Assembly (NCBI GenBank): GCA_051362555.1
Contig: CM120640.1
Span: 35,855,967-35,919,966, forward strand
Reading direction: 5' to 3'
From: Lingula anatina
Lineage: Eukaryota; Animalia; Brachiopoda
Length of the DNA: 64,000 nucleotides
The translations under genes and the position numbers were made by a program. The notes below the pieces were generated by a model. That model did no database searches. It saw only the letters and a program-made list of their open reading frames with translations, and was not told the origin of the DNA. The stretch's first letter is position 1. Each line of letters begins with the position of its first letter. Shown here one piece after another: positions 26,107-55,200 of the stretch.

Positions 26107-29100
26107 AGTTGGATTGCATGGGAAGACTTTCATAGATTATTTATGAACGAAGACATTTACCATTGAAGAATTGGTAGATTTTGCCTGAAGAAAATAAAGC
26201 CAAAGTGATAGTCCATCAGGTCTGGCTGAAATTACATCTAAAATGAACATGCGATTCCATTTTTGCCAGTGTAAAATATTGTGAGTGTTATGAACTCCAG
26301 ATGCCACAAACAATTACTTTTGGGTCTGTTAACTCCACATTCCTCGCCAATATCCCTTGATTTCAAGAATTTAAACTGGAACTTTTTTATCTGTCAATGT
26401 GGTGAGTTGGCCAGCCAATGACAGCTGTCAAATTGAGGCCTACTCTCTTGTGATCTTGACCGTTACTATCATAGCAAAGCTGGGAGAGCATGAGTACAAC
26501 TCAAAAATTAAGCCAGACCCATTGAAAACCCCAAGGTCAAATTAGCCTTATTACTGACAATATAGGCCTTCCTATTGGTTAGAAGGTGTAAATTGTTCCG
26601 AAAAGACAAGTAGTTTTGCTTTTTATTGATGACTGATGATAATTTGGCACATTTAGTGTTGTAATCAACCTTAAATATTTCTTAATTTATCATTGTTTTA
26701 TCAAAATCTATACACAGAAATTACACTTGGGAAAATGGAAATGGTTTGAAATTGTATTTAGGGGTACCTTATAGGTCCCTATAGACTAAGGCTTATTGGT
26801 GCTTAGGAAATGTGATATTTATGATATTTTCAATGGAAATTGTAAAGTTAAACAAAAATTTACATATTATTTATGTTGTCTGAAAAATAATCAGCAAGTA
26901 AGAATTGTGCTAGAATAGTGAACTTCCACGATCAAATGGTTTCATCCTTTAAAATTAAATTTGCTGCTTTATTATTAATAAGAAATTACCTCAAGGCCTT
27001 AACTTTGAGTGATTTCTTGCTTTACTTAAATTTATTTTCACATCATCATTTCCTTCATGATCTATACTTATGAAACTCTGATGCTACTTTCAGTACTTTG
27101 TGTCAAACAATTATAAGAAAGGCTTGACCTGAACAATACAAACCATTTGTTATGCTGATATTGTTTGCATACCAACTGCTTATCTTTTACAGAAGTTTAT
27201 TTATATCCTTTTATTTTGTGCAAATTAATAGTCTAATAATACATTTACTAAGGAAATGTTTAGTTTCTTTTTCAGAACAGATTAATGTATTTCTGAGTTA
27301 AATAATTTGAATTTAATTAATGTTATGACCTTTTTGAAATTCATTAGTCTTATTGTGTAAGCTATTCTGTAAAGTTTAAATTGTGTATTTTAATTTGTTG
27401 GCTTTAAACAAAATTACCCAAAGAGTACCAGAAGGAATTAAATAATCAATAATCATTAAATAAATTAAATTATTAAATACAAGCAGGAAGTAAAGCGTGT
27501 AATCAAATGCAGGGCTTAAGAATGCTTTTTTATCAACAGAAATGACGTTGTGTGCATTTATCTGTAGATAACATCAAATTCTTATATGGTTTAATTCCAT
27601 CCACTTCCAAATGCATCTTGGATATGCTAATGTATTTGACAACATGCTATTCATTTAATTTTTTAAAAACTATTTCTTTGTGATAAAGTTGCTTGTATTC
27701 CACAGTTTAAGAAGACATTTGGATTTTGTAGAAAAATAGTTCATAATAAAAGAAGTGTTATGTAGCCTCTAGTCACTGTTAATTTTATGCAACATCCTGA
27801 ATGATATATCACACGTAAAATGAAAGAAAGAAGAAAGAAATTACTTTGGGGAAAGTGTCCACATCAACTTGAATTGGAAGGGTACATTTATTTTAAAATG
27901 ATCAAAGAATTTGAGAATAAACAAAGAAGATTATGTAGTATTTACTTATAAACATTTGGTTCTCCATTATTATATAGCTCCTCATTTAACGTCTTGCTGC
28001 AGAATGTTCTGCATTCTTCCCTACACCATTATTTACTTATGTTCTTATCTTTCAGGAAACAGTTACGTTGAAAGGAACTGGTGAGGGGAATTTTCCCTAA
28101 ATGATTGGACTATGCGCAAAGACCTATAGAAATGGGAGTGCCAATAAACACGATGGTGTCAGCAAAATTTTTATTTTGATTTGGATTACATTATTTTCTA
28201 GAAAAAGATCGTATTTCATCTCGTGAGTACAGAGATTTTGTACCATTAGAAATACTTGTATAGGATTTTAACTGTTTGGTCTTTGCCCAAATACAATAGC
28301 ATCCATCAATGTCAGCCTTTGGAAAATTGAATAGATAATAGAGCATAGACTTTTAGACGTGCAAAAATGAAGAGCAGACAGCGCCTTTTTAACACCCAGG
28401 GATCTGTTAGACTGACATTCAATATAATACCATAGAGTTTATTTACCATTGCTTCTAAATACGATCACCAAAATTTTATCAATCTATTTATAGAACACAT
28501 TACTGAGCAAAATCTAAATATTTACTTAGCATTATAGTCCATGTGATGTCAAGTTAGGCGATACTGATAGGCAAGACCAAGATGACTCTCCGTGGTGGAT
28601 TAAGGAAACAAAAGAGCAGTAGATGTGGTAATTGTTGTTTTAAACTAGAAGATGCAAATTTTGATAAAAGTATTTATTAATAGATTTTGTTACAATAGAC
28701 AGGAGTTTTCATCAATAATGTGACAGGTGCTTATTTACTTGAATATAATACCAACGTTGAGGACAATACTTGCTGTTACAGTTGTACAGCAGGCATTTGT
28801 GCCCTTAGTTGCCACTGAATTCATGTAAATTTTAATTGTTTGTCTTTGCCCAGATCCTCTATATAAATTTTTTGAAAAATTGAAAAGATTGCATAAAGCA
28901 TAAGCTTCAGGGAATGAAAGGGTGGAGAAAAAAAGCAGATCATTCTTTAATTCTGTGAATTCATGGTTCTGATTTAAATTGTATATAATCATCAAGTTAA
29001 TATTTATGACAGTAATAAAAATGCCACCTAATAAGAAAGCCTTATTTGCCTTGGTCCCCAGTAAAGGTCACTAAAAATTTACCAATCTATTTATAAAATG

Positions 29101-30049
29101 GGTGGAGTAGAATAACCCCACAAAACAACAAAAGTGGGCATAAAAGTGTTCAGTGGAACGTGAAGTTATAGCATTGGCCAGGTGACTTTAAAAAAGAGAT
29201 GAAGGAAACTCAAAAAACAATAGATATGATAATTTGTGTGTTTAATAGTTAAGAAAACGTTAACCTTAAACTAGATAGGCCCCCAAAATCAAAGATAAAA
29301 ATCCCCAAATATAATCTAAATTCAGAAATGTTTGCATTAACAAGGAAGTAAGTGAATAACACAAAGAAAAAAAAACAAAATAGTTATTGTCAATTTAGTT
29401 CAAGTCACAAAGTTATTTATGTCTCATGAAAATAGGTCAGGAATACATGTTTTTACGATTAACTAGGGTGGGAAAGTTTTGCAATATCCCACTGAAAGCT
29501 GAAACAGAGAAGTCCTAAGAAAATGGACAGAGGTTATTGAATATGATAAAAATGAAGGCACTGTGCTTCAACAAGTATTTAAATCTTCCATATCTGGGGG
29601 ACTTGTAATACCCATGCAAAATTATCCTGCTTACTGAAACGTGAAAAGCTAATAACTATTTACTTCTCTGACTTAATTAAGATGCTCTATCAGTTGTAAT
29701 GCCCTAAGTAAGTGAACCCAAGTAGTAGATATGTGTGAAGGGGGGGGGTGATATAAGACCACAAATTTTCTTCAGAAGACTTAAAGACAGAGCTATAAAT
29801 GTGAAACTTAATGATAAGTAAACAGTAGGTGTAAATGGTAACTTCAGTGATAACAAAAATGAATAGTTGATGAGGAAAGGAGGGTTGATTTTTGGATTGA
29901 GTTGGATTATAATGATGTGCACTTCAGTCTGAGCAAGATACTCTACCTTGCTAAGGTATCTACCCTGAACAGTGAAACGTCTGACGAGGAATATGTTAGA
30001 AGTGGGAAACTAAAAGTAGGTAACTGAATCGGCATAACATGTGCCCATG

Positions 30050-30350
30050 CGATATCTATTAAATTTCGGGACATTGTGTCCGCCTATGTCATCAGGTGAC
30101 TGGAGATTCTACACGCAAGGACCCTTAATTTCTTTGTGCAGTCGCAGTGACCGCTATCGGAGAAAACAAGCGACTCTTGGATAAAGAACATATTGTCAAC
30201 TGCAACTGCTAAATAGCTAGAGAAACTAAAACTTACCGCATTCATGTAACAGTCAGCAATTGTACTGTTGATCCTTGCTTGAAGTTGTGCAGAATCTGTC
30301 ACTGTACGCTTCAACAGATCGAGTGAACTGCTGGAAAGTTCTCATAGAGG
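30050..30350. promoter_or_regulatory. CpG-retaining putative promoter and non-coding first exon of the TIR-pseudokinase gene
   Basis: Local cluster of CpGs. A plus-strand donor (gag|gtaaaa, ~30350) lies upstream of an acceptor at 31399. There is no in-frame ATG in the phase-compatible frame of this exon. Confidence 0.4.
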
Positions 30351-31758
30351 TAAAATGAAATTTTTTGAACTGAAGATTTCAGTTGCAGATTTGAGATAAC
30401 TTGTAGCTCAATTGTATCATGCTCGTGAACAGAATGAATCAAGCAAAATGAGGCCAGGCAGTGATGCCCCATGGTATAAGTAGCAACATGTGCCTCTAAG
30501 GAGATTACCCCTCTAAGGCACAATTGAGCATGAGCAGAATGCACATGTGCTTTAATAAGCTCTCTGGAGATTGTTGTCGCCATAAAATGTTGTTTGACTA
30601 CGCCAAACTTTCCTTTCTTAACCTTTTTTTTCAATTTGAAAGTACAGACTTTTCAAATAGCACCTGCGTCTGTCATAGTCATTGCCATTGGCAAGCACTT
30701 TCAGAGACAACATGCTGTGTGGAAAACTGTTTTACCTTCTGTGTTCAAACTTACAGAACTGATGGATATTTATTAATATCAGATTAAGTTTGAAAATCAG
30801 CTTGATAGGACCAATTTTACAAAAGTTATTATTTTTTTCTTTGCTTTTACTAGCATGTATCCATACAGATAACTAATTAAATGAAAAATCGTCTTGTTTA
30901 AAACTTACAGGAGTGATCAATACAGGTCCAGTTTGAAAACCAACCTGATCAGATTACTTCTCTTGAAGTTATGCATTTTTTTTTGGGGGGGGGGATGTTC
31001 ATATTTCACAGATTGGCATTTTCAAGGTGTGACTTTTAGCTTCCATCTTGGACATAATAACATAATTTTGTCCATGCTTCCATGGACATGAGGACCTTTG
31101 CTAGTCACTTTTTCTAAATATATATGTTAACTGCTATGCATAATTAAAAATTGGTGGTGATTATGCTGTTAAGCATTATGCAATATTACATCAAAATTGA
31201 CAAAAAAAAATTTTTGGGGCACTGCCACCATATTTACCATGTTGCTTATGATTCTCAGACTTACAAAAAAGATTCACAGGACTGAAAAAAGTATGTGTAA
31301 TTCAAGGTCTATCATCAATATTACTTAATGTTTAATAATATTTAATGAATTTTCATGAAAAATTAAATCTTGCAAACGTGGACAATTTTTTCTTAAAAGG
31401 AACCAAGAAGCGTTCCACCAATGGAAGAGGCTGTCACACTCCAGAAGGTATGAATTAAACACCTATATAAATGGGGATGATTAATATGTATAGAACATAT
31501 CATATTTAAGACCATCTCATTAGAAAGCTAAAAGATGCAGAATAAAAGAGTAGAAAAATAAGATATTTTGCACTAGGCATGTTTTTTGGCAGTTAAATGT
31601 ACGTAGTTGCAGCTTTGCCTTTCATATTATCCCACCAAATAAACTTAAATTTCTGTCTAACAAGAGGATTTGATCAGATTAGACCATTGATTTTTATATA
31701 GATGGTATTTTTCTTCTTATTATTTTACATTATTTTAGTTGGTAACAGGAGTGGTTCC

Positions 31759-34700
31759 ATGAGGGGATTTCAAGTTTTATCCCAAAATGGTAAGGCATGC
31801 TATAGAAATTAATAGAACATAAAGAATTGAAAGGATAGTGAAACTTTTCAGAAGTCAAGCAAAATAAACAACAATTTAACAAAATGTATATTTTTAATGC
31901 ATGACTCTGAAATATTTAGTATAATATTAAGTGAAGGCATCATTCATGTATCTTTTTTATATGGAGAATTTATTATTATTATTATTATCGACCTGGCACC
32001 CCAAGAAGGGTTAGATAAACAGCATAATCAAATAGAACTTCTTACTTATAATATTAGTCATATAGATAAATATGAGGAATAAAAATAATGTTTGAAGCAT
32101 CTTACATACTGCAAATTTGCATATTTCTTCTTTCATAGCATACGCAGGATTCAAATATGATTTGTTCATCTGTTACACTGAAGAAGATGATGACATGGTA
32201 GACCATAAGCTGATAAGTTTCTTAGATCAGGAACGCTCTGGCGGTGGACAAAATACATGCACATATGAAAAGAAAAATTTCTTGCCAGGAAGACATAATG
32301 TTGAAAATGTGTGCCAAGCCATGAAAGAAAGCCGCAAGACATTACTGGTCCTGACCTCCAATTTTGTGAAGACAGAATGGTGTAAATATGTTGCAGGGTA
32401 CAGGTTTGAAGAGGAATTCAAGAATCGTATACTCATTGTTCAGCTGGAGGAGTGTAATGTAAATATAAATATATAAAATTACCTTGATTTTTTAATATCT
32501 TAATTACTTTTTGTCATAGGGACTATTACTAGTCCTGAGCCTGTTTTACAATACATTTAATATTAGCCAACAGAATTTTGCTTCCTATTTTGATTGATAG
32601 CTAGTCTCACTTTAAATTAAGTGCTGAATTGGTCACCAAAAATAAACCATCTTGAGACTGTCCAGGAACACAAACAGAAGCAACTTTAATGTTTCTCTAC
32701 ATTTTTGTCAGACAGATTCACATGGGCCATAAACTTTCATTGTGAGGCAATTTTGTTTTATATCAGAAATGCTTTATAATATAGAAACATTGATTTCTGT
32801 GTATATTTTAAGATTTCCAAACGCCTTAGACAGTATATCCACGGGGTTGAGATCCTGAAATATGGTGAACCACCAGGAGATTTTTATCGAACCCTTCAAT
32901 TTTTTATTGACCATGATATTGATACAAGTACATCATCTTCATTTGGCAGACATCTACACATGGAAGGCAAAAAATATGACAGTATGTATTAAACATTGTA
33001 ATATTTTTAATATTATAATTTCTCATATTGCTGTTTTTATTGCGCCCATCCCGCCCGTACTTAAAGCTATGAACAACATTTTTATACCCCCCTTTGATCA
33101 TATGGCGGGACGATATATATTGCTTTGCAATTGTCGTTCGATCAATTCATCGGTCCCTCAGTCCAACCAACAAGGAAAGAATGATTATGTCTATATTCCT
33201 CATATTTGGGAGGAAGGTTTGTCATCATGGGTAGATAACTTCTATTATTTTTGAGGTCAGTAAGCAAAATGTCAAGGTCACAATGATCTTAAGCACAAAA
33301 AAAACTTAACTGACCAATAAATTGATTGTAAGATTTTGCCTATATATGGTCCTTATATTGGGTAGGGAGGTTTGTCATCACATTTATATGAACACTATCA
33401 ATTTGGAGGTTTGTAGTCAAAATTCAAGGTCACAGTCATGTTCAACACAAAAAATTTGTCTGACTATAATAAATATAGCGAATAATGTGGCAAATTGGAC
33501 TGCATGTGTGTTTGACTAACACCTTTTTTTCTAACCATGCATGTGCCAATAAGCCCTAGTCCCTTCCCCTTCATAATGTAAAATTCTGAATACATTATTA
33601 GTTATTTCTGCTATAAACCATTTTACAGCTGGAACTGAACCAAACAATGATTATTATGGTGAGCAGTTCAAAGCAGCTTTGTCAGATGCAAACTATTGCA
33701 GCCAAAATAATACAGGTACTTATACAGCTACTAGTTTGATACAGTTTTGTAAACAGTACAGTTTTTAGGTGGTCATTTATAAATGGATATTATTTTGCTG
33801 CAAATACTAGTAAGTTGATGAGTGGTTTGCATTCCCTGAGCCTTCTCAAGTAAGTATCATTGAAGTAGGTCTTATTTTTTGTATAAGCATGTTGGAAATT
33901 TTGTGAAGCAAGTCTTCTTTCTGCCTCTGTTATGCATCTAGCTAGAAAAATTGCTCAAATACTGACTAACCATGCTGTTTTTCTTGCAGATTTGGTAGAT
34001 AAAGCTGTTGCAGAAGGAAGTTTATGTAGCTTCAATAAAGATCCAGAGTCATACGTGGAAAGAATGAATAAGATGGTGGAAAACAGCCCAAACTATTTAC
34101 TCCATAAAAAATCCTTAAGAAAAGCAATGCTTTCACAAAACTTAAACTGGGATATTCTGGCTGTTATTAGCTGTATTAAAGATGCAGATTTAAAGGAAAT
34201 AGCTTTGAAAAAATTGGAAGGAGTTCTGCTGGAAAATGATCCTCTTTCTGATGAGCAGGCAAATGACAGGCTACTTGAGGCTGCTGTCAAAATTGAGCTT
34301 TCTTTGTTTTCTGAAACAAACAGTAACTTTCTGACAAAACGATTGTCAGTTTATGGATGTCTATTGACATGCATTCTTTTGCATGTATGGGAGCAGCATA
34401 TCTATCCACCTAGTCATTGGTTGTCTAGGCTAGGTGAAAAAGTTCTGCCATTTTTAGAGGATGCCAAACGAAGTAAGAGTGCTAGGAACAAAAGACAAAA
34501 ATACACAATTGATTTTTGTCTATTCATCATACGCAGTTTGAGGTTTGACAGTGGGCCTGAAATGCAGAACCAGTGGAAAGTATTCCACAAATTTGTAACA
34601 TCTGATGATATTTCCCACCATACCATTAATTGGGAAGATGTTCTTGGGACACGTCTGATGAATAAAAACTCAGAGTGTTGGTTTTATTTCATTAAGGTGA

Positions 34701-37700
34701 TTCTCCAGGCCTTCACAGGACTCCAGGTATATGTTATATTTTAATTCAGATGGGGGGATGGGGGATATCTGGATATACATATAGAAGTAATTGAGGATCA
34801 CTAGTCTTAGAGTAAAAAGTTTGTTTAAAGTCTGTATTGGGTTGAATTTTCATGGCAATCAAGAAAGATGGATGCCCGACTGTCTCTCATCATAATTTTT
34901 AGACTAATGCACCATCAGACAACTGAAAATGTACACCAATAACCTCAAATAGTTCTTTTCTTCTTTTGCAAAAATTTCAGTCATGAACAGCATAGATTTG
35001 CATTCATTAGAGCATTTGCTAGCATAGTTTAAAATTTTTGTCATTCATGTTAATTTTGATGTTAATTTTAGTTGGATTTTTTATGCACATAGGCAAGAAA
35101 AAAAGTACAGGAGACGAGAAAAAGAAGCTTTGCATGCCTTCCCCTTCATGCAATGGCATACATGCTGAAAAAGTTCAAGCCCAACTGCTTGTACCATGAA
35201 GAAACTATTCTTCAGTGTGCTCATATTTTGAGTAGGATGGCATGCCAGCCAAAAAATGGTCAGTTTATCATTAAAAAGAGAAATTCTGTATTGCTTATAT
35301 GAATTTTTTTCATTTTCACATTAGACTTTTTTCTATATTTTATATCAGTTGGTCATTCCTGGTGTTACTTTTCATTGGTTGGAAATTATAAAACAGTTGT
35401 GTTATTTTCAGATCTATATGAAAATGACAAATAATTACATTAATACTTTTAAAGGGGTTAAGTTTAGAGCTTTTGTTCTATTTATGAGTAGAAATAATTC
35501 AGATAATGCCAATTTCATCAATATGTTTTTTTATAATTTTGATATTTCAACTTTTTTCTTGGATACGGAGTCATTTAATTTCAAAGGATATGTTTGAACA
35601 TATCAATCTTGAATCAATTTCATATCAATAGGCAGTATTGATTTTTTCTATCTCCAGAAATGGCACAGTCTGTGGTGTTTGGCTGTACAGAAGCAGGTTC
35701 CCCAGATAATGGTCTTAGGCATCTGTTTGATACTGTCCAAGGGAATAAGTCCTTCAAAGAAGCTCTTTCAGAAGTCATTAGACCCATCTTATCTACATCA
35801 GAAGATCAAACAATCAAAACTGTACTGCTTGAAAAAATTTTACCAAGAGATTGCAGTACAGAAGAAAAGAGGAAAGATTTAGTGATGACCGCAATTGTCG
35901 AAAAATTAACTGAGCATTACACCCTTATGGGTCAAAGTTTGGCAATTGACTTGAAGCCACAGTTGAGTCAAGCACAAAATGATATATTTCGCCTTGATGG
36001 AAAATTAAATGGAAACCCAGTGACAGCTGTTATTTTGAATACATTTAAATGTGGTGATGTTTCTCAGATTAAAAAGGAGGAAAAGCTGATCAAGAAACTT
36101 ACACACAAGAACATCCCTAAATTGGTGGAAAAGATGGAGGGAGATGGAATTCCATTCCATTTTATCACTGAAAGAGCAAAGGGAGAAAATCTCCAGACCT
36201 TTCTTTTGCAGAAACGCAAAGATCCAGATTCATTTCCCTTGCCTGATCGCATGAAACTGGCAACAGGGCTCTGTGAAACACTTCACTATACCACACATTC
36301 AGAGTGTGTACTTAGAAACCTTTCTGCCCAGACCATCATGATAATGAAAGACGCCCGGAGGCAATATCAGCCTAAAATTGTAAACTTTCAGCAAGCTTTA
36401 ACAGTGCAAGGAGGAACGCTTGCACCAGGAACCATGAGAGACAAAATACCCGTGAGATGTTCTGCGCCAGAAGCTTTCCTAAAAAATGAATTTTCAGAGA
36501 AAACAGAGGTGTACATGTTTGGATGTCTGTTGCTTGAGATTTTCACTTTAGGTAGCCCAGCCTTTCAGGAACTTGCTAAGCCAGAGGATGTTCAGATAAT
36601 GGTTTGTATTATTTTTTATATAAAGTTCTGTAGAGAGTATTGGGGGGTGTCTGTTAATACCCCCTTATTGGCCCAGCTTGAGAAATGCCATAGTATCTAT
36701 AGATGAAGTTTTGATTAAGATCACAGCTATTCCAAACAAAAGGCCATCCTTGTTACCTCCCTTGAATTTATATTTGTTGTAAATGTGTAGAACATATGAC
36801 AGAACTGTACTATCCCTGATGAGTTTAAACCTGTTAATCTTATGTTTATTTAAATGTGTTTCTGGAAGTGACTAGCATAATGTGATTATCTTGTACTATA
36901 TGTATTTATATTTTTTATTCAATTTTATTTTATGTTTCATCTACATTTGCACAGGTTGGCTGCATTGATTACAAAGTAAAGAAACCCCAGTGTATTCCAA
37001 GTGATATTTTCAATGTAATTTTGGCATGTCTCTCAAGGGCACCTGATAAAAGGCCTTCTTTTGGGGCCATACGCAGTTCATTGCAGGATATACTAAACAA
37101 GGCAAAAGGTATATCAGCAAATACCATGTATACCATCTGATATGATATATTTTGTAAGGAGTAGCCATCCCAACTGTCACCAACCATATCTTTGCATGTT
37201 CATCCTTCAACAAATTAAAATACCTGCTTAATTATCAGAATTATCTCATTACAACTGTGTGTAAAGGAAATATCTTATCAGTTTTGATATACCCTTTTTT
37301 GCAGCTCAAAAACACCATGATCCAGAGGAGAACGGTTTCCCAAGGGTGCCCATGGCAGGGGATTTTCTCAAGGTATGTGCACTGTTTTGATATTTGTCTA
37401 TATTATTGTTTTAAGGAGTTTGTCTGTTTTCTGTGAATAAGCTGATTTAATCATGAAAATATTGGTATTAATATCAAAAATTATCAATGAAAGTCACTGA
37501 ATAGTTCTCAAGCCTACATGAATTTTTAATACAGATAATAGGAAATAAATTGGACTAGACATTTTACTTAATCATTTTGCAAAATATATTGGATATTATT
37601 TTGCATTTTATAGAGAACAGAGGAAATTGTGACAAAAGTAAGCAGTGCCATTAAAGAACACAAGGTAGTTATTACACCACTGTAATAATCATAAAAATTA

Positions 37701-40700
37701 AACAGAGTAGCCATCACTCCTTTACTGTGCACATCTTTTTCTTTTTGTCTGTAAATCAACAAGTTGCTGAATCAGAAACAAAATGGAAAACAGCGCATTA
37801 TCCCTGGCAAAGGTTTAATGGTTGGCCAGCAATGTTGTTCATAACAAACTTATATAATGTTGACAGAAAAAAACTTTGTACTTTTTCAAATCTTCCATAT
37901 GGCACAACCCCAATGCGCTGGCGGTACACATGGTTTCGGTCCCGTCTGGATCGTTCCGCCGGCTCTGCCGGCTCCGCCGGACGGCTACCGTTACCACTTC
38001 TCCTCGTAGACGGTAAGGGCCCCCGTACCCATCTCTTGGATTTAGGTCACCTATAATCTCAGCTCGTTCCACGTAAAATTTGGGCTTTGCCGGTATTGGG
38101 GTCTGGGTGTGGCACTCATTGCAATGCACCCTTGTCCAAAAATGGCAAAATTAAATGCTAATTATCTACCCTACGGAAGGGGTTATGGGAAAAATTTCTA
38201 CAGGAGGCTTTCCAAAAGTCATATGTGTAGATTTCAAATATGCCCTTGGATTTGACCTTTGACCTTTACTTCAAGGTCAAACGGGCCAAAATTTTCAAAA
38301 AAATAATATTTTTTATGAAAAAAAATTTTTTTGCCCTGTTATTCAGACACCACACAGACTTAACCAATAATATAATTGGAAAGTGTTACCCTTCAGGTCA
38401 TCTTTCATCTCCGTGAATTTGGGGTCAATCGGTGCATTTTCACTGGAGTAACGGCCATAAGATGCCGAAACTGAAAACTGTCTCTAATTCGGGAACCGTT
38501 AATGCTAGAGACCCATTCTTTTTTGCATTTTGTAGAGCATGTAAAGCCCAACACTGGAAGTGGTCTCCGTTTTTTTGTATTCCAAACGGTTTTCGAGTAA
38601 CGCTATCAAAAAGTACATATTGGTGGTGAAAGCAAAATGTGCAGTACGGTATAGTCAGGTGGCTAAGTCCAAATTTTATCCAGAATTGTGCAATAGATGA
38701 TAAAAGCATGAAACTTTCCCCGATGAATAACCATTGGGTGTTCATCTATTTTGGATCAGGGGGTTGACAAACACCCAATGGTCATTCATCGTGGAAAATT
38801 TCATGCTGTTATCATCTTTTGCACAATTCTGGATAAAATTTGGACTGAGCCGCCTGACTACTTTTCACCATGAACTAACCTTTGCAAATTTTGTTTCCCT
38901 TTTATCTCCAAAACTGGCAGAGATAGGTCCATAGTTACTATTGAACTTGAATGGGAAGTCATATACTGGCAATCTAAATGTGACCTTGAAATTGACCTTT
39001 GACCTACTTTTCACCATGAACTGAATTTTGCAAATTTTGCTTCCCTTTTATCTCCCAAACTGGCAGAGATAGGTCCATAGTTACTATTGAACTTGAATGG
39101 GAAGTCATATACTGGCAATCTAAATGTGACCTTGAAATTGACCTTTGACCTACTTTTTACCATGAACTGAACTCTGCAAATTTTGCTGCCCTTTAATCTC
39201 CAAAACTGGCAGAGATAGGTCCATAGTTACTATTGAACTTTAATAGGAAGTCATATACTGGCAATCCAAATGTGACCTTGAAATTGACATTTGACCTGCT
39301 TTTCACCATGAACTGAACTTTGCAAATTTTGCTGCCCTTTTATCTCCAAAACTGGCAGAGATAGGTCCATAGTTACTATTGAACTTTAATAGGAAGTCAT
39401 ATACTGGCAATCCAAATGTGACCTTGAAATTGACCTTTGACCTACTTTTCACCATGAACTGAACTTTGCAAATTTTGCTTCCCTTTTATCTCCAAAACTG
39501 GCAGAGATAGGTCCATAGTTTCTATTGAACTTGAATAGGAAGTCATATACTGGCAATCTTAATGTGACCTTGAAATTGACCTTTGACCTACTTTTCACCA
39601 TGAACTGAACTTTGCAAATTTTGCTTCCCTTTTATCTCCCAAACTGGCAGAGATAGGTCCAAAGTTACTTTTGAAGTTGAATAGGAAGTCATATACTGGC
39701 AATCTTACTGTGAAATTGACCTTTCACCTACCTTTTGATGAACTTTTGATATATTTTTTTGCATATTTTGAAAATTCTTGTTGATTGCATTTTTACAACT
39801 TGTCAAGCAAAAGACTGGTGGCTGTGTCCCTTATTTTGTGTATGTGGGGGTCTATATGAATGCGCTTGCTCCAGCTGGTGGTACAATATTCGGAGGCGGT
39901 ATCGCCTCTCTGATCCTCTAGTTAAAAAAACTGAAATCTCTTTGCTCTTACATATGGTTATGTGTGTTTTTGTATTTATAAATATTTTTTTGCATGTTGG
40001 AACATTTGAAATGTCAGTTCCTTTTCAACTTGTCAGAGGTGATTGTATTAGCAAGACAAGGAGTAAAAATAGAAGCACAATTCAGATGAAAAGTAATGAA
40101 ATTTGCAAAAGAAATGAAAATTCATTTTGACAATTTTCAAGTAGTTTTGAAATGGAAACACTTGTATCATTACAGAAATGGATGAAGGGGCGCTTTGCTG
40201 CAAACTTGAAAGTAAGTATGTTTTGTTTCAGGTACTCTCCACGAGATTTACCCACCAAAATGAATTTCCCTAAAGAACAGGACCATTTTTTGCCTATATT
40301 CAAATATCATTGCTTGACCTGTCCCTTTCACTTATATTTAAGGCCTTATGCCATTTTTAATATAATGATTTAGATCTAAATGACTGCCCAGTCATTAAGA
40401 TTAACATGTGCTTTTGGCATTCATGGGCATGGATATCAACTGCGTAATGAAGAATAAGTTTACTCAGAAAGGACTTTGTTTAAGCATTTTCCTACTGAAC
40501 TAGGAATTAACACCTAAAATATGTACAAGATCTGTTTCTTTCCTAGGTCACAACATTTCCAACACCACAAAAATCAGTGGAGAGGTGTTTGCTGGAATGT
40601 AAGAAAAGAGCAAAACTAGTGCCCGGAAAGGTAAAAAACTTAACACTAAATAGATGCGGTATATATGATAAAATCCAAACAGTGTGCTGTGTAATTTAAT

Positions 40701-42018
40701 GTTTTTTATTCATTCCATAAATAGTAAAACATGATTTGACTGATAAGAATCTCTTAGTCTGAAAAGTCTCAGAAAACTCTTGCTCTAATTTGAAAAATTG
40801 AGCAATATGTTTCTGCCCAAAAATGAAATTTGTAGATAATGGAAAAATTAATTTTACACCAGTCTTCTGAACAAGCAACTTGAAATAGTAATATTTTTAC
40901 TAGTTTTATGCAAAGTTTACTGACCAGTAGCAAAGTGCACCCTTTATATATGTTTCCTCCAGTATTATTTGCAAAATCACCAAAGATTATATTTTTTACA
41001 GGGCCTGAGAGAACACCTACCACCAGACCCAACGCTCGTTAAAGTTCTGAGGAGCTTAGTCAGCTTTGGAAATGAAAACAGAAATCTGGCAGCCATTTCT
41101 TTCCCAACAGATGGAGATCTGTTATATGTATGTGTATGGGATGGTCAATTTCATTTCATGATGTTTTTTCATCTAAGTTACATTTTGTGTCATTTTGTTG
41201 TAATGTTTTACCCTTCCCTGCATTATATTGTTAATCTTAATAATCTATTAATTTGAAAAGTATTTTTCATGTACCAACACAATGTGTTTGTACATATACC
41301 CATCACATTAATTCATCTGCTCTTTAAGTTATGGCCTTTTTTTGTAAAATGTTCATTTTTCACACTATTGGCGTTTTCAAGGCGTGACTTTGAAATTCCA
41401 TGGTTCTGAAGCTCTTTGCTATTACATTTTCTTACATACATGTTACCTGATGTGCAAATTAAAATTTGGTGTTGATTTTGCTGTTAAACATTATGTGATA
41501 TGGCATCTAAATTGACCAAAACCCTGTTCTGTACACTTTAAATGTTATTTTCTGCATTGTGTCTGTATATTTGACAGTTTTGCTGCCTTGTTTCTGAAGA
41601 ATATTATTTGACTTAAACAAAAAGTACAACAATTTTTTTTTTGTTCCCCTACCCCTAATTGATTAAGAAATGTCATGAAACTTTACATAAAAATATATTC
41701 TCTCATATTCTAATGGAAATTAATGTGTAGTATTGTTACTCATATTGAGAAAAATTTAGACTTTTCAATTTCTACACTAACTGAGAGCATACTTGTAAAT
41801 TCTGTTCTCTTTTTGTTATGCATGAACAGGTAGAGATATCTACAGAAGCAAAGATGGACATTTTGGAATATATACGCGATAACAAAGTAGATGTTAATCA
41901 GATAATTGCATGGACATGTGACATTGGCGAAACTATGGATTTTCTTCTTGAGAAACGAGTCTTGCTTTGGGACATTCGACCAGAATGTATCTTCATGGAA
42001 AAACAGGAGGTTTGTAAA

Positions 42019-42093
<75 letters not shown>

Positions 42094-45000
42094 ACGCGCG
42101 TGTGTGCAAAATATGTAAGTGCATGTGTGCATATTTTAGTGTGTGTTTAGTCAATAACATCATAGATATAAAACTTAAATTTAACCAGTTCTTTTATTTT
42201 ATGACTTGTTACAGTACAGCTGTATATATTATAAAGATAAATATAAAAATTATAGCTGCTAGAATATCAAATAAGCACAGTTCAAATCATGTGGCATGCT
42301 CAGAAGAAAGACAAGAGTTGGAATTGCTTCTACTCTAGATCTTTAATTTCTATCCTTTATTATTGATCAATAAATCTTTGACCATTTTAGTGGGTCAAGT
42401 TTGAGTGGTCATCTGGTGCACACTAGATACTCTGAAGGCTTGCTAGCCTCCTTATTCAAAGCACCCCCTGCTCTTGTGAGTTTGTTTGCTGTTGTGAATT
42501 TGTTTGCTGTTGTGAGTTTATTTGGTGTTGTGAGTTTGTTTGGTATTGTTTGTTTGGTTTTGTGAGTTTATTTGCTGTTGTGAGTTCCTTTGGTGTTGTG
42601 TGTTTGTTGTAAGTTTCATGTGTGTTGTTGTGTCGTCTGTTTGGTGTTGTGAAGATCTTGTGTGTTGTTTGATTGGTGTTATGAGTTTGTTTGGTGTTGT
42701 GAGTTTGGTGTTGTGAGTTTGTTTGGTATTGTTAGTTTGTTTGTTGTTACTTTGGTATTGTATTGTTTGTTTGGTGTTGTGAGTTTGGTATTGTGTTGTT
42801 TGTTTGGTGTTGTGAGTTCAGTTGGTGTTGTGAGTTTGTTTGGTGTTGTAAGTTTATTTGGTGTTGCTGTACGTGCTGTTTGTTAGGTGTTGTGTATTTG
42901 TTTTGTGTTGTTGTGTAGTTTGTTTTGTGTTGTGAGTTTCTTTGTTGTTACTTGTCCCTAGTGTTGTGACTTTTGTTTGGTGTTGTGACTTTCATGTGGT
43001 GTTGTACATAATCCATACAAGCTTCAGACATTATTTAAATCAATTTGTTTTAATGGATTTTTCCATTTTCTTTAACTAGCCTTTTATATTCTATATTCAT
43101 ATTGCAGAGTCTAGTTAACATTAGTGGATTTTAGATTTAAATAAATATTAACATTATTATCAATTTTATTAACATGATTTGAGATTGAATTGATCATATG
43201 TATGTCATTTTACTTAAAGAATCGTATGATCCCTAAAATTTCCAATTTTGGAAGATGTAAGCATCTGCATGCAGAGAATAATGCTGAAGGCAGTATCTCC
43301 GACCCAGGGGTGATCCCTGCAGATTTTGAGTGGTAAGTTCTCAAATAATGAAATAAATAAAAGTATAGTTACACAGGCATGCAAACAGACAGACGTCTTA
43401 TTGAAACAATATTTATCACTTGCCTTTTTAAATCATGATGCAGAGATTTTGTTAAGGAGGGGGGTCAGGAAGCTTTGCTTGTGGTTGTATTAAGTTTTTG
43501 TTTTATATCATTTCTCTGATTGGCCACTTCTGAATTCAATATAGATGCAAAGGATTATTTTTTCAATAAAAGAATAATATTCTCAGGTATCCAATAGAAA
43601 TTCTTCTGGATTTGGATCATCCATACATCTGTTGTAAAACTAGCAGCTACATGCTAGCAATGCTCTGCTGGCAAATGTTCAATGAAATGAGTCCAAAGGA
43701 TAGAAGAAGGCCTTTTGGTTGTGAACATGTAGATGAAGTAAGTTTAATTTCAAACTTTCATAAACTTTTAGCAAACTTTTTAATGTAAGACATGTTAGCC
43801 CTAATCTCTACAATAAGTTTTTTTACTTACTTAATAGTCACTTGATGTTTTAACTTAAAAGTTTTTGTTATATTGAGTAATCAGTTACCTTTGCTATATA
43901 ACTTTTAAATCAAGTGCTTGTAATGATAACTCTTCTTTTAATAAATATAGTAGTTTTCTTTAAGTTTGGAACATTCATCTGTGCACCCCATAGCCAAACA
44001 TCAACTAGAGCAGCTTTGAAAGTCAAAGAATTTACAAAGCAATATCCATACCAACAAATGCATTTACTTGCATTGCCTTATGATTCTGATGTGGTGTGCA
44101 ACTAGAAATATTATAAAACATTTTGTATATATAGCAGACATGTGTCATTCATGTGGCTCATTGCAGGTTTTTGTGTGTTCTCATTTTCTTAGGTGAAAGA
44201 ACTGCTCCTGAAGAAAATCACACCAGAGCAGCCAACAGAATGTCCTGAGTGGTTATACCTTTGGATGAAAAAGGCCTGGAGAGATCTATCTGTCCGCCCT
44301 GCTTTGAAAACACTTATTGCTTGGTTAAAATCAAGGTAAAACATAAACAATAGCTCTATGCCTATGTCATTCAATGGCTTTGTTTCTTAGATATACATGT
44401 TCATGTGTGGTCAAATCCTTTGATAAAATATTGTATTTTTTTTTTTTGTATAATTTCAGAGAGAAGTTAGAAAATGAATATTTGAAGATATTTAAGAATG
44501 CAACAGTTTTGAATGCTGTGACACTTACAGCACAGAAGACTTGCACAGAAGATGGTAAAAATACACATGATTCCACTGATAGATGCCTAGAAGAGGCACC
44601 TGAATACTACTTGCAGGGTTTAATATGGTTTAAACCCACTATGGAAAACACAAATGCCTCTGAAAAATCCCTTCTTCAGACATATACATATGCATATTGC
44701 AAAACAGCTACTGGTGAAGGTCAACATACTGGATGGCAACCACCAAATTATTATAGTTTTGTTGCAAGTCATAAGGAAGATGATTGCTCACTAAGTGGCA
44801 AGTGTTATGTAGGTGAGACAAAAACATGTCAGAACAAAAATACTGTGTCCCAAATGTCAAATTTATCGAACCCAATAATGGAAAAGACTGTCCAGCACCA
44901 TTACTTATCAATCCCAAGTTTTCCAAGACCAGAGTGTGAAAATGGAAATACACTTGGAAATCAACAGGAGGATGTTTATGAAGATATTGATACAGTTATG

Positions 45001-45840
45001 AACAATAACAAACAAACTGATCAGGAAGTTCCCATTTTGACTGACATACAGAAATCATTACATATCAATGACAGTCCATTGATGATGTGCGCAGATTGTG
45101 CTTGCACAAATGGAAATGGTGAATACAAGACAACAGCACCACGCAACAGCATGACTGTTAACACTTCCCTTCCATGCGATGTTGAAAATGCCAGTGCATC
45201 GCATCAGAAGACAGACATGGCTGTTGAGGAATTTTACAATGATGATTATGACTATGTGGATGAATCAACACAATATGAAAAATTACATGCAATTAATGGG
45301 GAGAACACACCTTCTGATGATGAAGAACCAATTTACACAGAGTTAATTATAGATCCTATAGAGGAAGAGAACACTGAAAGTGCTGGCAAGAATTTCAGCA
45401 CCCAACCTCAGAACTTACAGGAATTCTCCACTGTGGATCAGGAGGCAAACGGAGATGTAGATGTTCATAGAAAGGAAATTTGGAACCCATGTGAAACTGT
45501 GTGGAAGCGTGGAGAAACAGTGAGGTGCCCTATACAGCGAGGCAGGCGGCCAAAATTTAAGGTAGACAGGACCAGAACAGAGGAACCAGGATGTTGTGAT
45601 TATGTCAATCAAACTAGAAAACTAGATCAATCAACTACAGTCAACCAAGAAAAGAACAGTAAACCCTCTCAAAGTTTACCCAAGACCAGTCCAGAAACAT
45701 TTGCAAATGACAGCTTAGGTGATGGAACCTCAAACAGTCTGAACAGCAATTTTTCTATTAGAGATACTGATACTGCAGATGATTACGATGATGTTTTCCC
45801 TGCAAACCTGAGTAAGCTATCACATCCAAGGACCAAATGA
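31759..45840 (+). CDS. TIR domain + two tandem tyrosine-kinase-like pseudokinase domains + Tyr-motif-rich tail, ~1637 aa, ~18 coding exons
   Basis: Exons 31759-31789, 32139-32458, 32813-32981, 33629-33715, 33990-34726, 35093-35258, 35658-36601, 36955-37108, 37305-37372, 37614-37637 (or 37664), 40176-40211, 40547-40630, 41002-41127, 41830-42009, 43220-43332, 43587-43737, 44193-44335, 44460-45840 join into one stop-free frame (4914 nt). TIR: KYDLFICY, NFLPG, SRKTLLVLTSNFVKTEWC. Kinase-like 1: LTHKNIPKL, IPVRCSAPE, FSEKTEVYMFGCLLLEIFTLG, CLSRAPDKRPSF. Kinase-like 2: KISNFG, WYPIE, PEQPTECPEWLYLWMKKAW..RP. The start codon and micro-exons are uncertain. Confidence 0.78.
33105..33470 (+). mobile_element. 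Degenerate short non-autonomous element (Helentron/HINE- or pearl-MITE-like) in an intron
   Basis: Starts TTTTTATACCCCCC...GGCGGG..TATATTG, followed by a decayed CGTC-type tract and two units containing GAGGTCA..TCAAGGTCACA. This layout is common in invertebrate HINE-like repeats. Termini are not resolved. Confidence 0.4.
38652..38860. repeat. 91-bp inverted repeat with 27-nt loop (MITE/foldback, TA-flanked)
   Basis: Arm 38652-38742 is the reverse complement of 38770-38860, with 7 mismatches by manual comparison. Both outer ends are TA. Confidence 0.9.
38861..39730. repeat. Tandem array of six 146-bp units
   Basis: The unit start CTTTTCACCATGAACT recurs at 38861, 39007, 39153, 39299, 39445 and 39591, an exact 146-bp period. 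The last unit is degenerate. Confidence 0.95.
42023..42086. repeat. (TG)n microsatellite
   Basis: About 32 TG units just after the exon ending at 42009. Confidence 0.95.
42474..43005. repeat. Degenerate ~18-bp minisatellite (TGTTGTGAGTTTGTTTGG)n
   Basis: Repeated GTGTTGTGAGTTTGTTTG variants over ~530 bp, almost entirely G/T. Confidence 0.88.
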
Positions 45841-46051: not shown

Positions 46052-46265
46052 CCTCACAAGAGACACTGGGTTCTGTAGTGTTTAAAAAATGCAAACATTG
46101 ATGGAAAACTGGGAGGAGTGGCACCAAATATTTTGTGCTTCACGTTGGTGTCCGATGCCCCCCTCACAAGAGACACTGGGTTCTGTAGTGTTTAAAAAAT
46201 GCAAACATTGATGGAAAACTGGGAGGAGTGGCACCAAATATTTTGTGCTTCACGTTGGTGTCCGA

Positions 46266-46297
<32 letters not shown>
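46052..46297. repeat. Perfect 110-bp tandem duplication ending in a ~30-nt poly-C run
   Basis: CCTCACAAGAGACACTGGG...GTCCGATGCCCC starts at 46052 and again at 46162. The C run spans 46268-46297. Confidence 0.9.
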
Positions 46298-49245: not shown

Positions 49246-52200
49246 TCAAGGCATATTAGGCATCATATTCATGTATGGCTGATTGGGCATGTTACCTGCC
49301 ATGTTTGGGGGAGGCATCTGGCGTGGACGATTTTGTGCATAAAGTTGCTGTTGGAACTGGTGAAAATTGGCATTGTTATAATTTGGATTCCCACCATTAG
49401 GTGGCCCTAGCATACCAAAGTCTTGTGATCCCATCCTTGGAGATGGACTCCAACCAGGGGGCATCCCTGAGGAGCCCCCTGGAGGACCTCCTGGCATCCC
49501 CATGGGCATCCCCGATCCTGGACCCATCCCACCAGGTCCTGCTAGAGGTGGGGAGTGCATCACTTGGTTTCCTGGTGGCATTCCCATGCCAGGCTGTGGT
49601 CCTGGACCATTGTGGCCAAAAGGTGGCATGTCACCCCCTGGCCCTGGGTTTCCAGGCATCATCCCCATCATCCCCATATGCTGACCTTGCATGGCTCTAC
49701 CTCCTCCTCGGCTCATCAGAGGGAAGCCCTGGTCTTGGGGCCCATCTGGGAAATAACTGAGTTTAGAAGAAGGTACTTTAGAGTCCATGTTAGCCAGTGG
49801 ATTAGAGAACCTCTGCATCATATCAAAATGCGGCTGGTCTGGTGTTGGCCCTCCTGGTGCACCTGCCCTGATATGTGCTGATGGATTGGACTGAGCAGGA
49901 GGGTTGGCAGGAAGGTACTGAATGGTATTGGGTGCCTTGGCTTGAATCTTCACATTAGCATTGCCCATACCCTGGGGAGGTGGACCTGGTGCCCTGTATC
50001 CTGGAGGTGTCTGTTGAGGTCTATCACCAGGTCCACCAGGAAAAGGCGGTCCCCTAGGCCCAGGGTAAGATCCCATGCTTTCGGGTTGACCTGGAAAATG
50101 ACCTCCAGGTCCCTGGAAGTGACCACTGCTGTTCTGGGGCATTCCATTGGGAAATGACCCCATGACCATGCTGGCAGATTGGTGGTTGGTTGGTGGAAAT
50201 CTGCCCATCATTCCCTGCTGGCCTCCGGGAAAGTTACCCATTCCTGGTGGAGAATCAAAGAACTGTCCTGGCCCCTGAGGTGTATGGGGAGGGCCTCCAG
50301 GGAAAGGCCCTGAATTTTGTCTGCCCATAGGCCCAAAATCTTGCCCTGAATCCATGAAAGGCCCACCAGCTGCTTCTGGAAAAGGCCTGTGAGTAGGATC
50401 ACCTTCCATTGTGCTCATGAATGGATGCTTTTCTGATACTGACGTTGCTGTCATAGCAACACTACTGTGCGGCATTGTGGGTGCCATAGACATTGTCATT
50501 TGATTCATATCATTATTCATTTGCTGCACTTGCATAGTGGGATAGTTTCCAGGTGTAGTCACATTTTGAATGTTCAACTGTTGTATTGACATTGTTGCAT
50601 TTACGTATGTATTGTTAACACTAGGAGTCTGTTGTGATGTGCCACAGCTTCCCTGTGGCATTTGTCCTTGGTTTAGATGATCTGGGAGGGGTGGGTGACC
50701 AGCAGTATTGGAGCTGGTGGACCCTCCCACACTTCCTCCCTGGTTAGTACTTGCACTCTCCTGAACACTAGTCATTTGACTCTGAATTTGAATGTTATGA
50801 AAAGGTCCACCCTGCATCATGTTTTGTTGCATTTGATTGGATAAATGTTCCACTCCTTTGGCGAGATTAGCAAGACTGGCAGAGGTGATGTTGGACATAG
50901 TGGACTTTGATGATGATGTGGTAGATGTGGATGTTGCACCAGCAGGACTGCTGCTGACCGGCGGAGGATCAAAGTGGGATAACCTACGACCACCAGATGT
51001 CACCGACCTAGGAGAGGATATTGCTTCTGATGCTGGCATTGGGCTTTGGATGGATTGTGCCTGGCTGCTCTGACCTGTACTTGATATAGGGCTTGGCAGT
51101 GGTGCAGCTGTGGACATTGTAGGTGTGCCTGGTAAAGAACCATGCCGTGACCTTTGACCGCCTTTGGAACTTTGCACTGGCCCTGACAGTGGGCTTGCTA
51201 TAGACTGCAGTGGTGAGTGGATATTCTGGTTGTGAGGATACTGATCTGACCTTGCTTGTTTTTGTGCAGGAGAGTCTGGTGGACCCTGATAAGCAGTGTT
51301 CAATTGTTTGGTTATTGTTAACTCCTGGCCTTCATACTGATTCATATAATTCATTTGTTGCGGCGATGGAGTTGGTTGAAGATTTTTGTACAAATCTTCG
51401 AAATCATCCCTTTCTCTTTTCCTCTTGGTAGACTGGGCATAGCTTGGTGGTGGTTTTGGAGGACCACTGACACTGGAGACTGGAGGAGGAGATGTGATCC
51501 GGAACTGCTCTGGATTGCCTACTTTCCCTATCATCACATTAGCATTCTTGGGTGGATTCGGTTGCCTCATCATGGGACCCATACCAGGACCAAAGTTCTG
51601 CCCCATATTTCCCATCATTTCTAAAGAATTCCCAGGAGGGGGAGGTCCCTGAGGTCCAAACATCTGGTCAGGCATTGGGTGCCTGGGTACTATTCCTCCC
51701 GGACCAGGTCCTGGGAACATGAAGTGGCCTTGTCCATCAGGGCCAGGTGACATATGACCATGTGGGGAGGTTAATGCTGGCCCTCCAGGGTGTGGTGACA
51801 TCATGGGTCCACCATGGTGAGGGGAAGGTACAGGGCCACTGTGGTGGGGAGATGGCATTGGCCCCCCTGGGTGTGGGGAAGGCATGGGTCCACCTGGATG
51901 TGGGGATGGCATTGGGCCACCAGGGACTTGTCCACCTGGCATCATACCTCCTGGCATAGGTCCACCTGGCATCATCCCTACAGCTGGGTCAGGAGACTGC
52001 ATGGGGCCTCCTGGGAGAGCAGGGGATGAGGTAGGGGACAAGGGAGGCATTCCCTGTCTTCGCTGAGATATAGAACTGTAGTAAGATGGAGGAGGACCCT
52101 GGGCAGAGTTTGGAGGAAAATTCATCCCTGGTTGACCTGGTGGTCCTGGTTGTCCACCTGGCTGACCATACATCTCCTGCATTTGCATCTGCTGATACCT

Positions 52201-55200
52201 CCTCTTCTCCATATAGAACTGCTGCTGTAGCCTCATCCACTCTCTCTGTGCTGCTGCCTTGCTAGGCAGTCCCTCAGCATTTTGCATACTGACTGTCTGC
52301 TGTTGCATCATCATATTTTGCTGTGTTGTCATCATACCCTGCTGTTGACTCATCATAGATTGTTGTGACATCATACTCTGGTGAGAATACATAGCTCCTT
52401 GCATACCCTGCATGTTCTGTGCCTGCGATGAGGCTGCTGCATTACTTTGCTCTAAGCCAAGCATCTGCTGAATCTTCCGTAAACTGGCCAAGTGCTCTTC
52501 TCGCCTTTGCAGTTGCTCAGGGGTCAAGTTTTCATTGGGGACTTTGCTCTGAGACAAATTACTGTGCATATTAGCAAAGTTCTGATTGGCCTGTGCCATC
52601 TGTTGTAAACTACCCATGGCAGACTGTCCTCCCCAGGGTCCCATCCCAGGGCCTGAGCTTGGGGGACAAAAGTCTGGGTTTAAATATTCTCCACTCATAC
52701 TCATATTATTTAAATTTGGTGGCCCAATAGGGCTAGAGTTATGAGGTTGCTGCATCCACTGTGAGTTGGGTGCCATACTGTTTGCTGGCAACATTGGATT
52801 GGATGACTGCATTGTACTGGGAGTTCCTCCCTGCATCTCTGCCATTGTGTATATAGGCATCCCTGATGGACCAAACTGGTTCATCTTCATTGGCATTTTC
52901 TGCAAATAAATATCAAGACATCCGTTTGTGTGAGGATTAGATAAAAAAAAAAGAGCAAACTGTATATGTAGGACAGCAATGAAAAGTTAAATGGGCCTCA
53001 ATTTTCTGCTTAATGACTGTTCAATGTCATTTTAATGACTGAAAAAATTAACACTTGTCATTACATGACTTTAGTCTTTTACAAGGCTTCCAATTCATTC
53101 ATTCATTCAATACCTCGTATCAGCAAAAACACAATCCATAACTTATACATGCTTTGGATTCTGTCTGCAATGTGTAGCCTATCCTTGTATCTTTAGACCA
53201 ACCAGCAAACAAATGCACAAATGAATGGAATCTACCAAACAGAAACTCATTTTATGATCCATTCTAGTCCAAAATAACTTCTCAGGTGTATTATCCCCAA
53301 TGGCACATATCCACTGATATATAGGCCACCAAAGAGATCATCTCTCCCCTTGCAGCTTCCATAGCAGTTAAAAGCAGGCAGGTAATGGTAATTACTCAAT
53401 TCTGATTTATTTCATAGCTCGGTAGGAACAAGTCAGTTACCAGCACCAAACACATCACTTCTGGCATACAGATGAGTTGATGAGATATCTTTTTTGTGCC
53501 GATGTCTTGGAGTACTCTCACATTTATCTTATAAAGTGCAGTAAAATTTGAAGAGAAAATGTGCTGTGCACTCTGAATAATTGCCTTTAATCATGACTAT
53601 AAATCTAAGCCTGACTAACAACTATTTCATTATGTTCCCCGCACTACCTAAATCTCTTTTGCACAACCTGAATAATGTATGAAGCAAGATATTGCACTTT
53701 GAAAATTGTCTCCTATCCTTCAGTGTGTCTGTCATCTCATGTGTGAAACAGTTGTTTATGTTTGTGGTTCTCATCCATGAGTTGCATTTGCATATAAAAC
53801 AGATGAACTGTGAGGTCGATGAATGTAAAAGCAAACTGTAATTCTCGCTGCAAAATCCTATCCCATCTTTCAAATTTATATGTAGCGATGATGTGTTAAT
53901 GTCTCTTTCTTACAGTCTCCAGAGTGACCCCCCTCTGTTCTACCTTGACTATGAAATTACTTCTGTTGACAAATGGCTAGCTGCAGAGCAATAAATATCC
54001 CAGACAGCTTTGCCACAACTCACTACCTCCTGGCGCACATTATGTTGTCTGCAAAAATTAACATCACTGTCACACCAAAAGCAATTACCGTCTTTTTTCC
54101 CTCTATTTGAATACAACGCAGAGTTGTTTAATGAAGCCTTGCATGAAAAAGAGTTGCATCAAAACTCAAAGATTTTTTTTCACTCTAGTTTAATTAAGTA
54201 TGTTGGGTTCTTGCTATGCAACATTCATCATTTTGGAAAGACAGTTTTTAAAATTAAAACATTATTATAGGGATGGATTCAATTTTGAGACCTTAATAAA
54301 GGAGGAAATACTTATTTCAAACCATAATTTCCACTGTAGCCCTGATATAAGTTACATAACAAAATATATCCCTATATCTTTGAATAACTAAGATTCCTAT
54401 CCATTTATAAAATGGGTTTATAACCCAAATTCCAAATCCTTAGAAAAACAATGCATAACAATTTTGAAAGATTTTCGCTTAAAAAAGACCCAAGGTATTG
54501 GCATACATAGGTAAAAGTCCGATAACAAAATCATTCCAAAACAAAATGCTGGCATGAAGTGTTTTACAGTCTTCTTAGTAAGGGCTGTCCTTCTGACTTG
54601 AGACGCCTATATACCCAGACGATAATTATATTTTCCAGAAAAATAGGGATTCATCCTTTCCTATTAAGGTTACAAAAGAACAATGAAGCAAAAGGTGTGC
54701 CTCCGTTTATACAGAAGGGTGAGTGTCCTCTACAGCCATACTATTGCAAAAACAAAGTATCACCACATCTGGGACTTAATATGTGAGAAAGAGTAAAGTG
54801 GTCCAAGGGAAAATTGAATAAATGCACTTTAAGTACAATATTTCCGAATGTTGGGAAGACAATTCCTAGAAGAGGTCAGGACAAGGACTTATTCATTTCA
54901 AAGGGGGTTAAAAGATGAATGGGTGAAAAGATGAATACTCATTTAACATATTTAGGAGAGGTTTTGCTGAAGAAATGCTATACTGAAGGATTTTTGTATT
55001 ACAATTCCGTTTAAAAAAACAGGATGACCACAGAGGGCTTTTCATCTTGTTTGTAAAATATTAATGACATCTGTGCAGAATGCAATCCCATTTACTTTCA
55101 CCTTCTGGGTATCATAATTAAGACAAAAATGTGAAAGTAGGTAAAATCTATTTTTAATTCAGTAACCCTTTACCTGCAATGTTTCCTTTGTTCCTGGCTG

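Follow-up and report, generated by a model that had tools for sequence, protein, structure and literature searches.

JAK proteins combine tandem kinase folds with FERM and SH2-like domains, possess an active C-terminal kinase, and carry no TIR. A pseudokinase is familiar in TLR signaling from IRAK2 and IRAK-M, with IRAK/Pelle proteins beginning with a death domain. PEAK1 and Pragmin are scaffolds that display tyrosine motifs and a split helical dimerization region around an SgK-type pseudokinase, again with no TIR. As described in the available text of PMC5241739 and PMC6937578, BCAP, an adaptor built on a TIR, recruits SH2 proteins, links TLRs to phosphotyrosine signaling, and dampens TLR output. 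BCAP (PIK3AP1) and BANK1 resemble the Lingula anatina protein described here in being cytosolic, with an N-terminal TIR, an oligomerizing middle and, in BCAP, SH2-recruiting Tyr motifs (PMC5241739, PMC6937578, available portions). The Lingula protein differs in that it has no Pfam match to DBB or ankyrin and no YxxM in its tail, and carries two pseudokinases instead. BCAP is likely a functional analogue only.

Other described proteins join a kinase or helical repeats to a TIR. The choanoflagellate Kinase TIRs contain a kinase and a TIR with no transmembrane segment, and Richter 2018 (PMC6040629) reports the class as choanoflagellate-only; their kinase precedes the TIR, whereas in Lingula the TIR comes first and is followed by two degenerate tyrosine-kinase folds. 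The sea anemone Novel Gene 3 is likewise a metazoan protein with kinase and TIR, but displays SH3, Roc/COR, and death domains and a C-terminal TIR according to the accessible part of PMC5094078, and none of these was found in Lingula. Members of ecTIR-DC 11 (TIR-Armadillo) share an N-terminal TIR followed by helical repeats and an invertebrate distribution; in the available text of PMC6321704 the Trichoplax members measure 429-499 aa and have no kinase, and the Lingula helical region returned no Pfam Arm match. A description of the TIR-double-pseudokinase architecture was not found in the literature searched, and the surveys Gerdol 2017 and 2018 may list the family. In the available text of the Aplysia immunome paper (PMC9334734), the Aplysia member is not named and appears only in an Aplysia-only orthogroup, while the accessible part of an oyster survey (PMC4346834) names no TIR-kinase class. 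The portion of the TIAMMAt TIR table seen (PMC8662601) gives 28 Lingula proteins in its last column, the label of which is not legible.

The gene lies in a window of 64,000 nucleotides of Lingula anatina DNA. An earlier note, made from the letters alone, had joined 18 phase-compatible exons into a frame of about 1637 aa. That frame holds: from 31759 to 45840, 18 exons of compatible phase, separated by introns that are all GT-AG (17/17), yield one stop-free open reading frame of 1646 aa. The proposed start did not stand, as RNA reads add two more 5′ coding exons, giving a full model of 20 exons, 19 introns, and 1684 aa with the following features.

28582..28627, plus strand: exon 1 (coding part), with the ATG and an in-frame stop 5′ of it (loose ends of RNA reads)
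31400..31447, plus strand: exon 2 (RNA depth; partly present in RefSeq P0002)
31739..31789, plus strand: exon 3, holding the ATG chosen in the earlier note, 31759 (junction to 32139, 8 reads)
32139..32981, plus strand: exons 4-5 (32139-32458, 32813-32981), TLR2-like TIR (Pfam, PDB alignment, junction of 8 reads)
33629..35926, plus strand: exons 6-8 and the start of exon 9, a predicted all-helical, solenoid-like region of about 400 aa (RNA junctions, low-confidence model, leave-one-out profile)
35927..37108, plus strand: putative pseudokinase 1 of tyrosine-kinase type, exons 9-10 (Pfam, structure matches, trees, junction of 5 reads)
37305..40630, plus strand: inter-kinase region, exons 11-14 (37305-37372, 37614-37664, 40176-40211, 40547-40630; frame, with low RNA depth on exons 11-12)
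41002..44481, plus strand: putative pseudokinase 2, exons 15-19 (41002-41127, 41830-42009, 43220-43332, 43587-43737, 44193-44335) and the start of exon 20 (profile scores, trees)
44482..45840, plus strand: predicted disordered tail of 452 aa with 18 Tyr, exon 20 to the stop codon (frame; identical to the RefSeq P0001 tail)

The first exon was placed by the loose ends of five RNA reads at 31399, which align to 28597-28622 with two mismatches; none of 100 shuffles matched. Together, exons 1 and 2 encode a basic N-terminus, with 10 K/R and a single D/E among the first 35 aa. The possibility that the gene continues 5′ into an LRR or transmembrane part was rejected: the two added exons are short, their product is basic, and an in-frame stop precedes the ATG. 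Downstream of the gene's stop codon, at 46052-46297, a perfect 110-bp duplication is followed by 30 C, a possible assembly artifact.

The TIR exon matches Pfam TIR_2 at 1e-10, above the Pfam cut-offs, and PDB alignment places it closest to TLR2/6/1 with the BB-loop proline retained, in agreement with the proposal of an N-terminal TLR/MyD88-style TIR. In the same alignment, a Val occupies the column of the TLR2 glutamate, which is the NADase glutamate position; enzymatic SARM1-type TIRs carry the catalytic glutamate there. Since the residue at this column is required for TIR enzyme activity according to the available text of a preprint (bioRxiv 10.64898/2026.04.20.719644), the Lingula TIR is likely a non-enzymatic, scaffold-type domain. 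Across the whole reconstructed protein no transmembrane-like segment was found (the best 19-residue hydropathy, 1.57, falls within kinase 1), as anticipated for a cytosolic protein, and LRR, Ig, death, FERM, and SH2 domains, all stated to be absent, were indeed missing among the Pfam matches. A separate 336-aa record, P0028, contains the TIR nearest to the Lingula gene (92 bits, twice the score of any TLR) with no helical or kinase part, and may be a TIR-only relative or an incomplete record.

The middle region of about 400 aa is predicted to be all-helical at low confidence by a single-sequence model (pLDDT 47.7), with a further such model reaching pLDDT 35.3. Its language-model look-alikes are HEAT/ARM proteins at 0.77, and its fold matches are to generic solenoids only, with Z up to 9.8; fold searches of the low-confidence models gave no specific match, and the linker exon matched no PDB sequence.

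Both tyrosine-kinase-like folds proposed in tandem were recovered by Pfam or profile scores, and loss of catalytic residues in each bears out their reading as pseudokinases. The large kinase exon matches PK_Tyr_Ser-Thr (1.4e-22), and its best 60 matches among solved structures are all tyrosine kinases (FGFR, Src family, Abl). Kinase 1 is accordingly of tyrosine-kinase type, with the β3 Lys, catalytic Asp, catalytic-loop Asn, and DFG Asp all missing. Kinase 2, which shares 16% identity with kinase 1, scored 27.2 bits against a home-made tyrosine-kinase profile (maximum of 500 shuffles, 4.0), matching from β5 onward only, with the N-lobe unmatched. A profile built from five relatives' second domains gave 45.4 bits for kinase 2 and 30.7 for kinase 1. 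Exon 16 supplies the catalytic-loop segment of kinase 2, and its inclusion raises the score from 4.4 to 22.6 bits; the catalytic Asp is kept and the His, Arg, Asn, and DFG Asp are lost. By these scores, the kinase 2 fold is real and very divergent. An MLKL-like reading returned no MLKL-type Pfam or fold match. A TRAF6-type motif in the inter-kinase region was discarded, since three matches over 1684 aa are close to what chance would give and the motif did not align in relatives.

The tail had been described as acidic and about 460 aa long; it is present, at 452 aa, and is only moderately acidic overall (73 D+E vs 42 K+R). Six of its 18 Tyr have at least three acidic neighbors, vs 1.0 in a global shuffle (p 2e-4) and 1.7 in a local shuffle (p 1.5e-3), an excess that lends statistical support to the idea of a phosphotyrosine tail. 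The same measure fell below p 0.05 in the tails of four of six relatives. Enrichment of Yxx-hydrophobic motifs varied with the residue set chosen (p 0.014 vs 0.06). Several tail Tyr presumably resemble SH2 sites of Nck, Grb2, Src, and Csk.

Lingula anatina RefSeq proteins match the window at 98-100% identity, with the large kinase exon at 98%. P0001 (1560 aa) runs from mid-TIR through the tail in one model with exon 16 in a different frame, P0002 (945 aa) covers TIR to kinase 1 and ends inside intron 12, and P0003 (593 aa) starts within kinase 2. The models thus disagree on how kinase 1 connects to kinase 2, at the repeat-filled intron 12 of about 2.5 kb. Outside the mis-framed part, the three models and the window disagree at 1-2% of residues, consistent with alleles or a recent duplicate, and the Lingula records of the gene form one 90% cluster with no expansion seen. 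Intron 12 itself is filled by a dispersed repeat and a 146-bp tandem array of 5.9 copies (37915-38650, 38858-39713), with repeat RNA depth above 1000 in some runs.

Raw RNA runs were aligned to 26500-38800 (four runs, repeat-dominated) and 31250-37880 (four runs), one common; six to seven of the nine were used. Depth over 31250-37880 is low (under about 8) and tracks the exons. At a listing threshold of three reads, five of the 10 introns inside 31250-37880 are seen as junctions: 31789-32139 (8 reads), 32458-32813 (8), 33715-33990 (11), 35258-35658 (8), and 36601-36955 (5). The other five show no junction at that threshold, two of them between the TIR and kinase 1. With the intron given by the loose ends, the junction check suggested earlier supports 6 of 19 introns, all from exon 1 to kinase 1 (reads on 31250-37880). 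A single transcript likely runs through both kinase folds; the 20-exon frame is open, and the single-chain models of several relatives support joining both folds and the tail.

Among the 40 RNA variants shown of 44, 27 are synonymous vs 11.4 expected (p 4e-7). The gene is under purifying selection; non-silent variants cluster in the N-terminus and TIR, while changes in the linker and kinase 1 are mostly silent. In runs X7-X9 on 31250-37880, reads are mostly 95-99% alike and carry many fixed differences from the window, which suggests that they come from a divergent population carrying the same species name.

Word-index searches retrieved no relative outside Lingula; relatives surfaced only with a full HMMER scan of 1.84 billion representative proteins, of which the best 150 of 10,172 matches were examined. 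Searches of viral, prokaryotic, and metagenome contigs found none. Two other proteins with TIR and kinase occur among these 150: Ptychodera flava XP_070555818, a single protein with the full architecture of TIR, helical region, two kinase folds, and Tyr-rich tail, and Branchiostoma floridae (amphioxus) XP_002612392, with TIR, helical region, one kinase, and tail. Mollusc relatives are helical-kinase-kinase-tail forms with no detectable TIR, and a second Ptychodera protein has an SH3 and no detected TIR. Besides XP_070555818, both kinase folds and the tail occupy one chain in scallop, mussel, Aplysia, and the second Ptychodera protein. Judged by sequence similarity, the family spans protostomes and deuterostomes (brachiopod, hemichordate, amphioxus, molluscs), and the claim that the protein is lineage-specific, subjected to the architecture search of protein databases proposed with it, did not survive.

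In a tree of 259 kinase domains from the scan, Lingula kinase 1 groups with ten others (SH 0.917) and kinase 2 with five others; the groups also hold the second Ptychodera protein, Glandiceps, scallop, mussel, pearl oyster, Aplysia, and two unnamed records. A second tree of 47 domains (17 family, 12 other degenerate, 18 random intact), built under a mixture model, recovers the first kinase domains of 11 proteins as one clade (support 98/82), while the kinase 2 group has long branches, is mixed with unrelated long branches, and is not clean. At least one of three catalytic residues is missing from 16 of the 17 family domains, the sole intact domain being the deepest branch. A leave-one-out profile of the helical region beats all 200 shuffles in six of seven proteins, narrowly for Lingula and Ptychodera; this linker homology is weak (Lingula 8.9 bits vs 5.8 for the best shuffle), and one of the seven fails. 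The three family TIRs score 17 and 33 bits with one another vs 45-47 bits to TLR TIRs and are no closer to each other. Because no TIR was detected in the five other family members tested (5/5), the conserved core appears to be the helical-pseudokinase part, not the TIR. The scan also returned P0010-P0017, a separate multi-pseudokinase group whose members carry between 3 and 10 tyrosine-kinase folds in tandem, many of these folds being degenerate.

The architecture was said to fit neither JAK nor IRAK, and with FERM, SH2, and death domains absent and no active kinase, it does fit neither. JAK identity was rejected on the lack of FERM or SH2 (no Pfam match at E up to 10) and of the DFG Asp and catalytic-loop Asn in kinase 2, whereas JAK-like proteins among the scan matches do show FERM or SH2. 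IRAK/Pelle identity was rejected in view of a TIR at the N-terminus, no death-domain match, and kinases that match FGFR/Src/Abl types.

The reading we favor, at a probability of roughly 0.55, is that one gene encodes a 1684-aa cytosolic TIR/solenoid/double-pseudokinase/Tyr-tail protein that would act as a non-enzymatic scaffold, connecting TLR assemblies to phosphotyrosine signaling. Because TIR-less forms exist among the molluscs and in the SH3-bearing second Ptychodera protein, a general receptor-tyrosine-kinase scaffold for development or adhesion, with an optional TIR and a role not mainly immune, was weighed; the surroundings, which are housekeeping genes with no immune cluster in the window, point the same way. 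We nevertheless consider it unlikely, as members from three phyla share a TLR-type TIR in the same N-terminal position and some TIR-less records are partial models. The neighbors in question (1-26000 and 49246-55450) comprise a protein kinase exon, which we take to be MAP3K4-like, a GCFC gene, a DUF4614 gene, and BCL9; a broken retrotransposon integrase (rve) lies on the plus strand at 17099-19065 inside the minus-strand GCFC-family gene.

The disagreement among gene models raises the question of whether the main product of the locus is a shorter protein (TIR, helical region, pseudokinase 1) that terminates within intron 12, with the second half separate, alternative, or decaying. RefSeq splits one copy into 945- and 593-aa models, an ATTAAA lies just 3′ of the read-through stop, none of the three RefSeq models reads exon 16 in the reconstructed frame, and the amphioxus relative has one kinase; against this, no RNA read covers the sequence immediately after exon 12 in any of the four runs, though nearby depth is low, exon 16 restores the catalytic-loop segment with the score gain given above, and both folds share a single chain in five relatives, making the short product quite improbable. 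A sensor, in which the pseudokinases would serve as baits or switches for pathogen effectors and release the TIR to assemble, finds precedents in the tandem kinase-pseudokinase receptors of plants and would suit a fast-diverging dead kinase pair fused to a signaling domain and a solenoid. It is quite improbable here: kinase 1 shows purifying rather than diversifying change, the Lingula records show no expansion (one 90% cluster), and such a model leaves the tail motifs superfluous.

For the favored scaffold, the TIR would enter membrane-associated TIR assemblies of TLRs or adaptors, possibly helped by the basic N-terminus. The solenoid and pseudokinases would oligomerize or recruit, in trans, a catalytically active tyrosine kinase; that enzyme would phosphorylate the tail and so create SH2 docking sites, as for BCAP. 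The effect on TLR signaling could be to raise or to dampen it. Of the proposed TIR-to-SH2 adaptor role, the Tyr-tail idea has gained statistical support, and the principle is not new, given BCAP (PMC5241739, PMC6937578, available portions). The protein is best read as an ancient bilaterian non-catalytic TIR adaptor that probably works like BCAP and is not BCAP, JAK, IRAK, or a choanoflagellate Kinase-TIR. It apparently belongs to an unnamed bilaterian invertebrate family, TIR adaptor scaffolds as such being already known. More tentatively, and with the odds somewhat against it, this could be an undescribed family from the protostome-deuterostome ancestor, with a TIR, a novel solenoid, and two tyrosine pseudokinases combined into one scaffold wiring invertebrate TLRs to SH2 signaling.

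Invertebrates possess many TIR proteins with no assigned role, and the route from their TLRs to tyrosine-phosphorylation pathways is poorly understood. To our knowledge, two adjacent dead tyrosine-kinase folds are unusual among animal proteins. The family is easy to overlook because database entries give its members no name or a wrong one (ABL1-like in one case), and such a signaling branch may have been missed because vertebrates, flies, and worms appear to be without it among the best 150 of 10,172 matches. The TIR double-pseudokinase family provides a concrete candidate for a TLR-phosphotyrosine link, testable in amphioxus or bivalves, and if the reading is true, it would represent an overlooked branch of TLR signaling.
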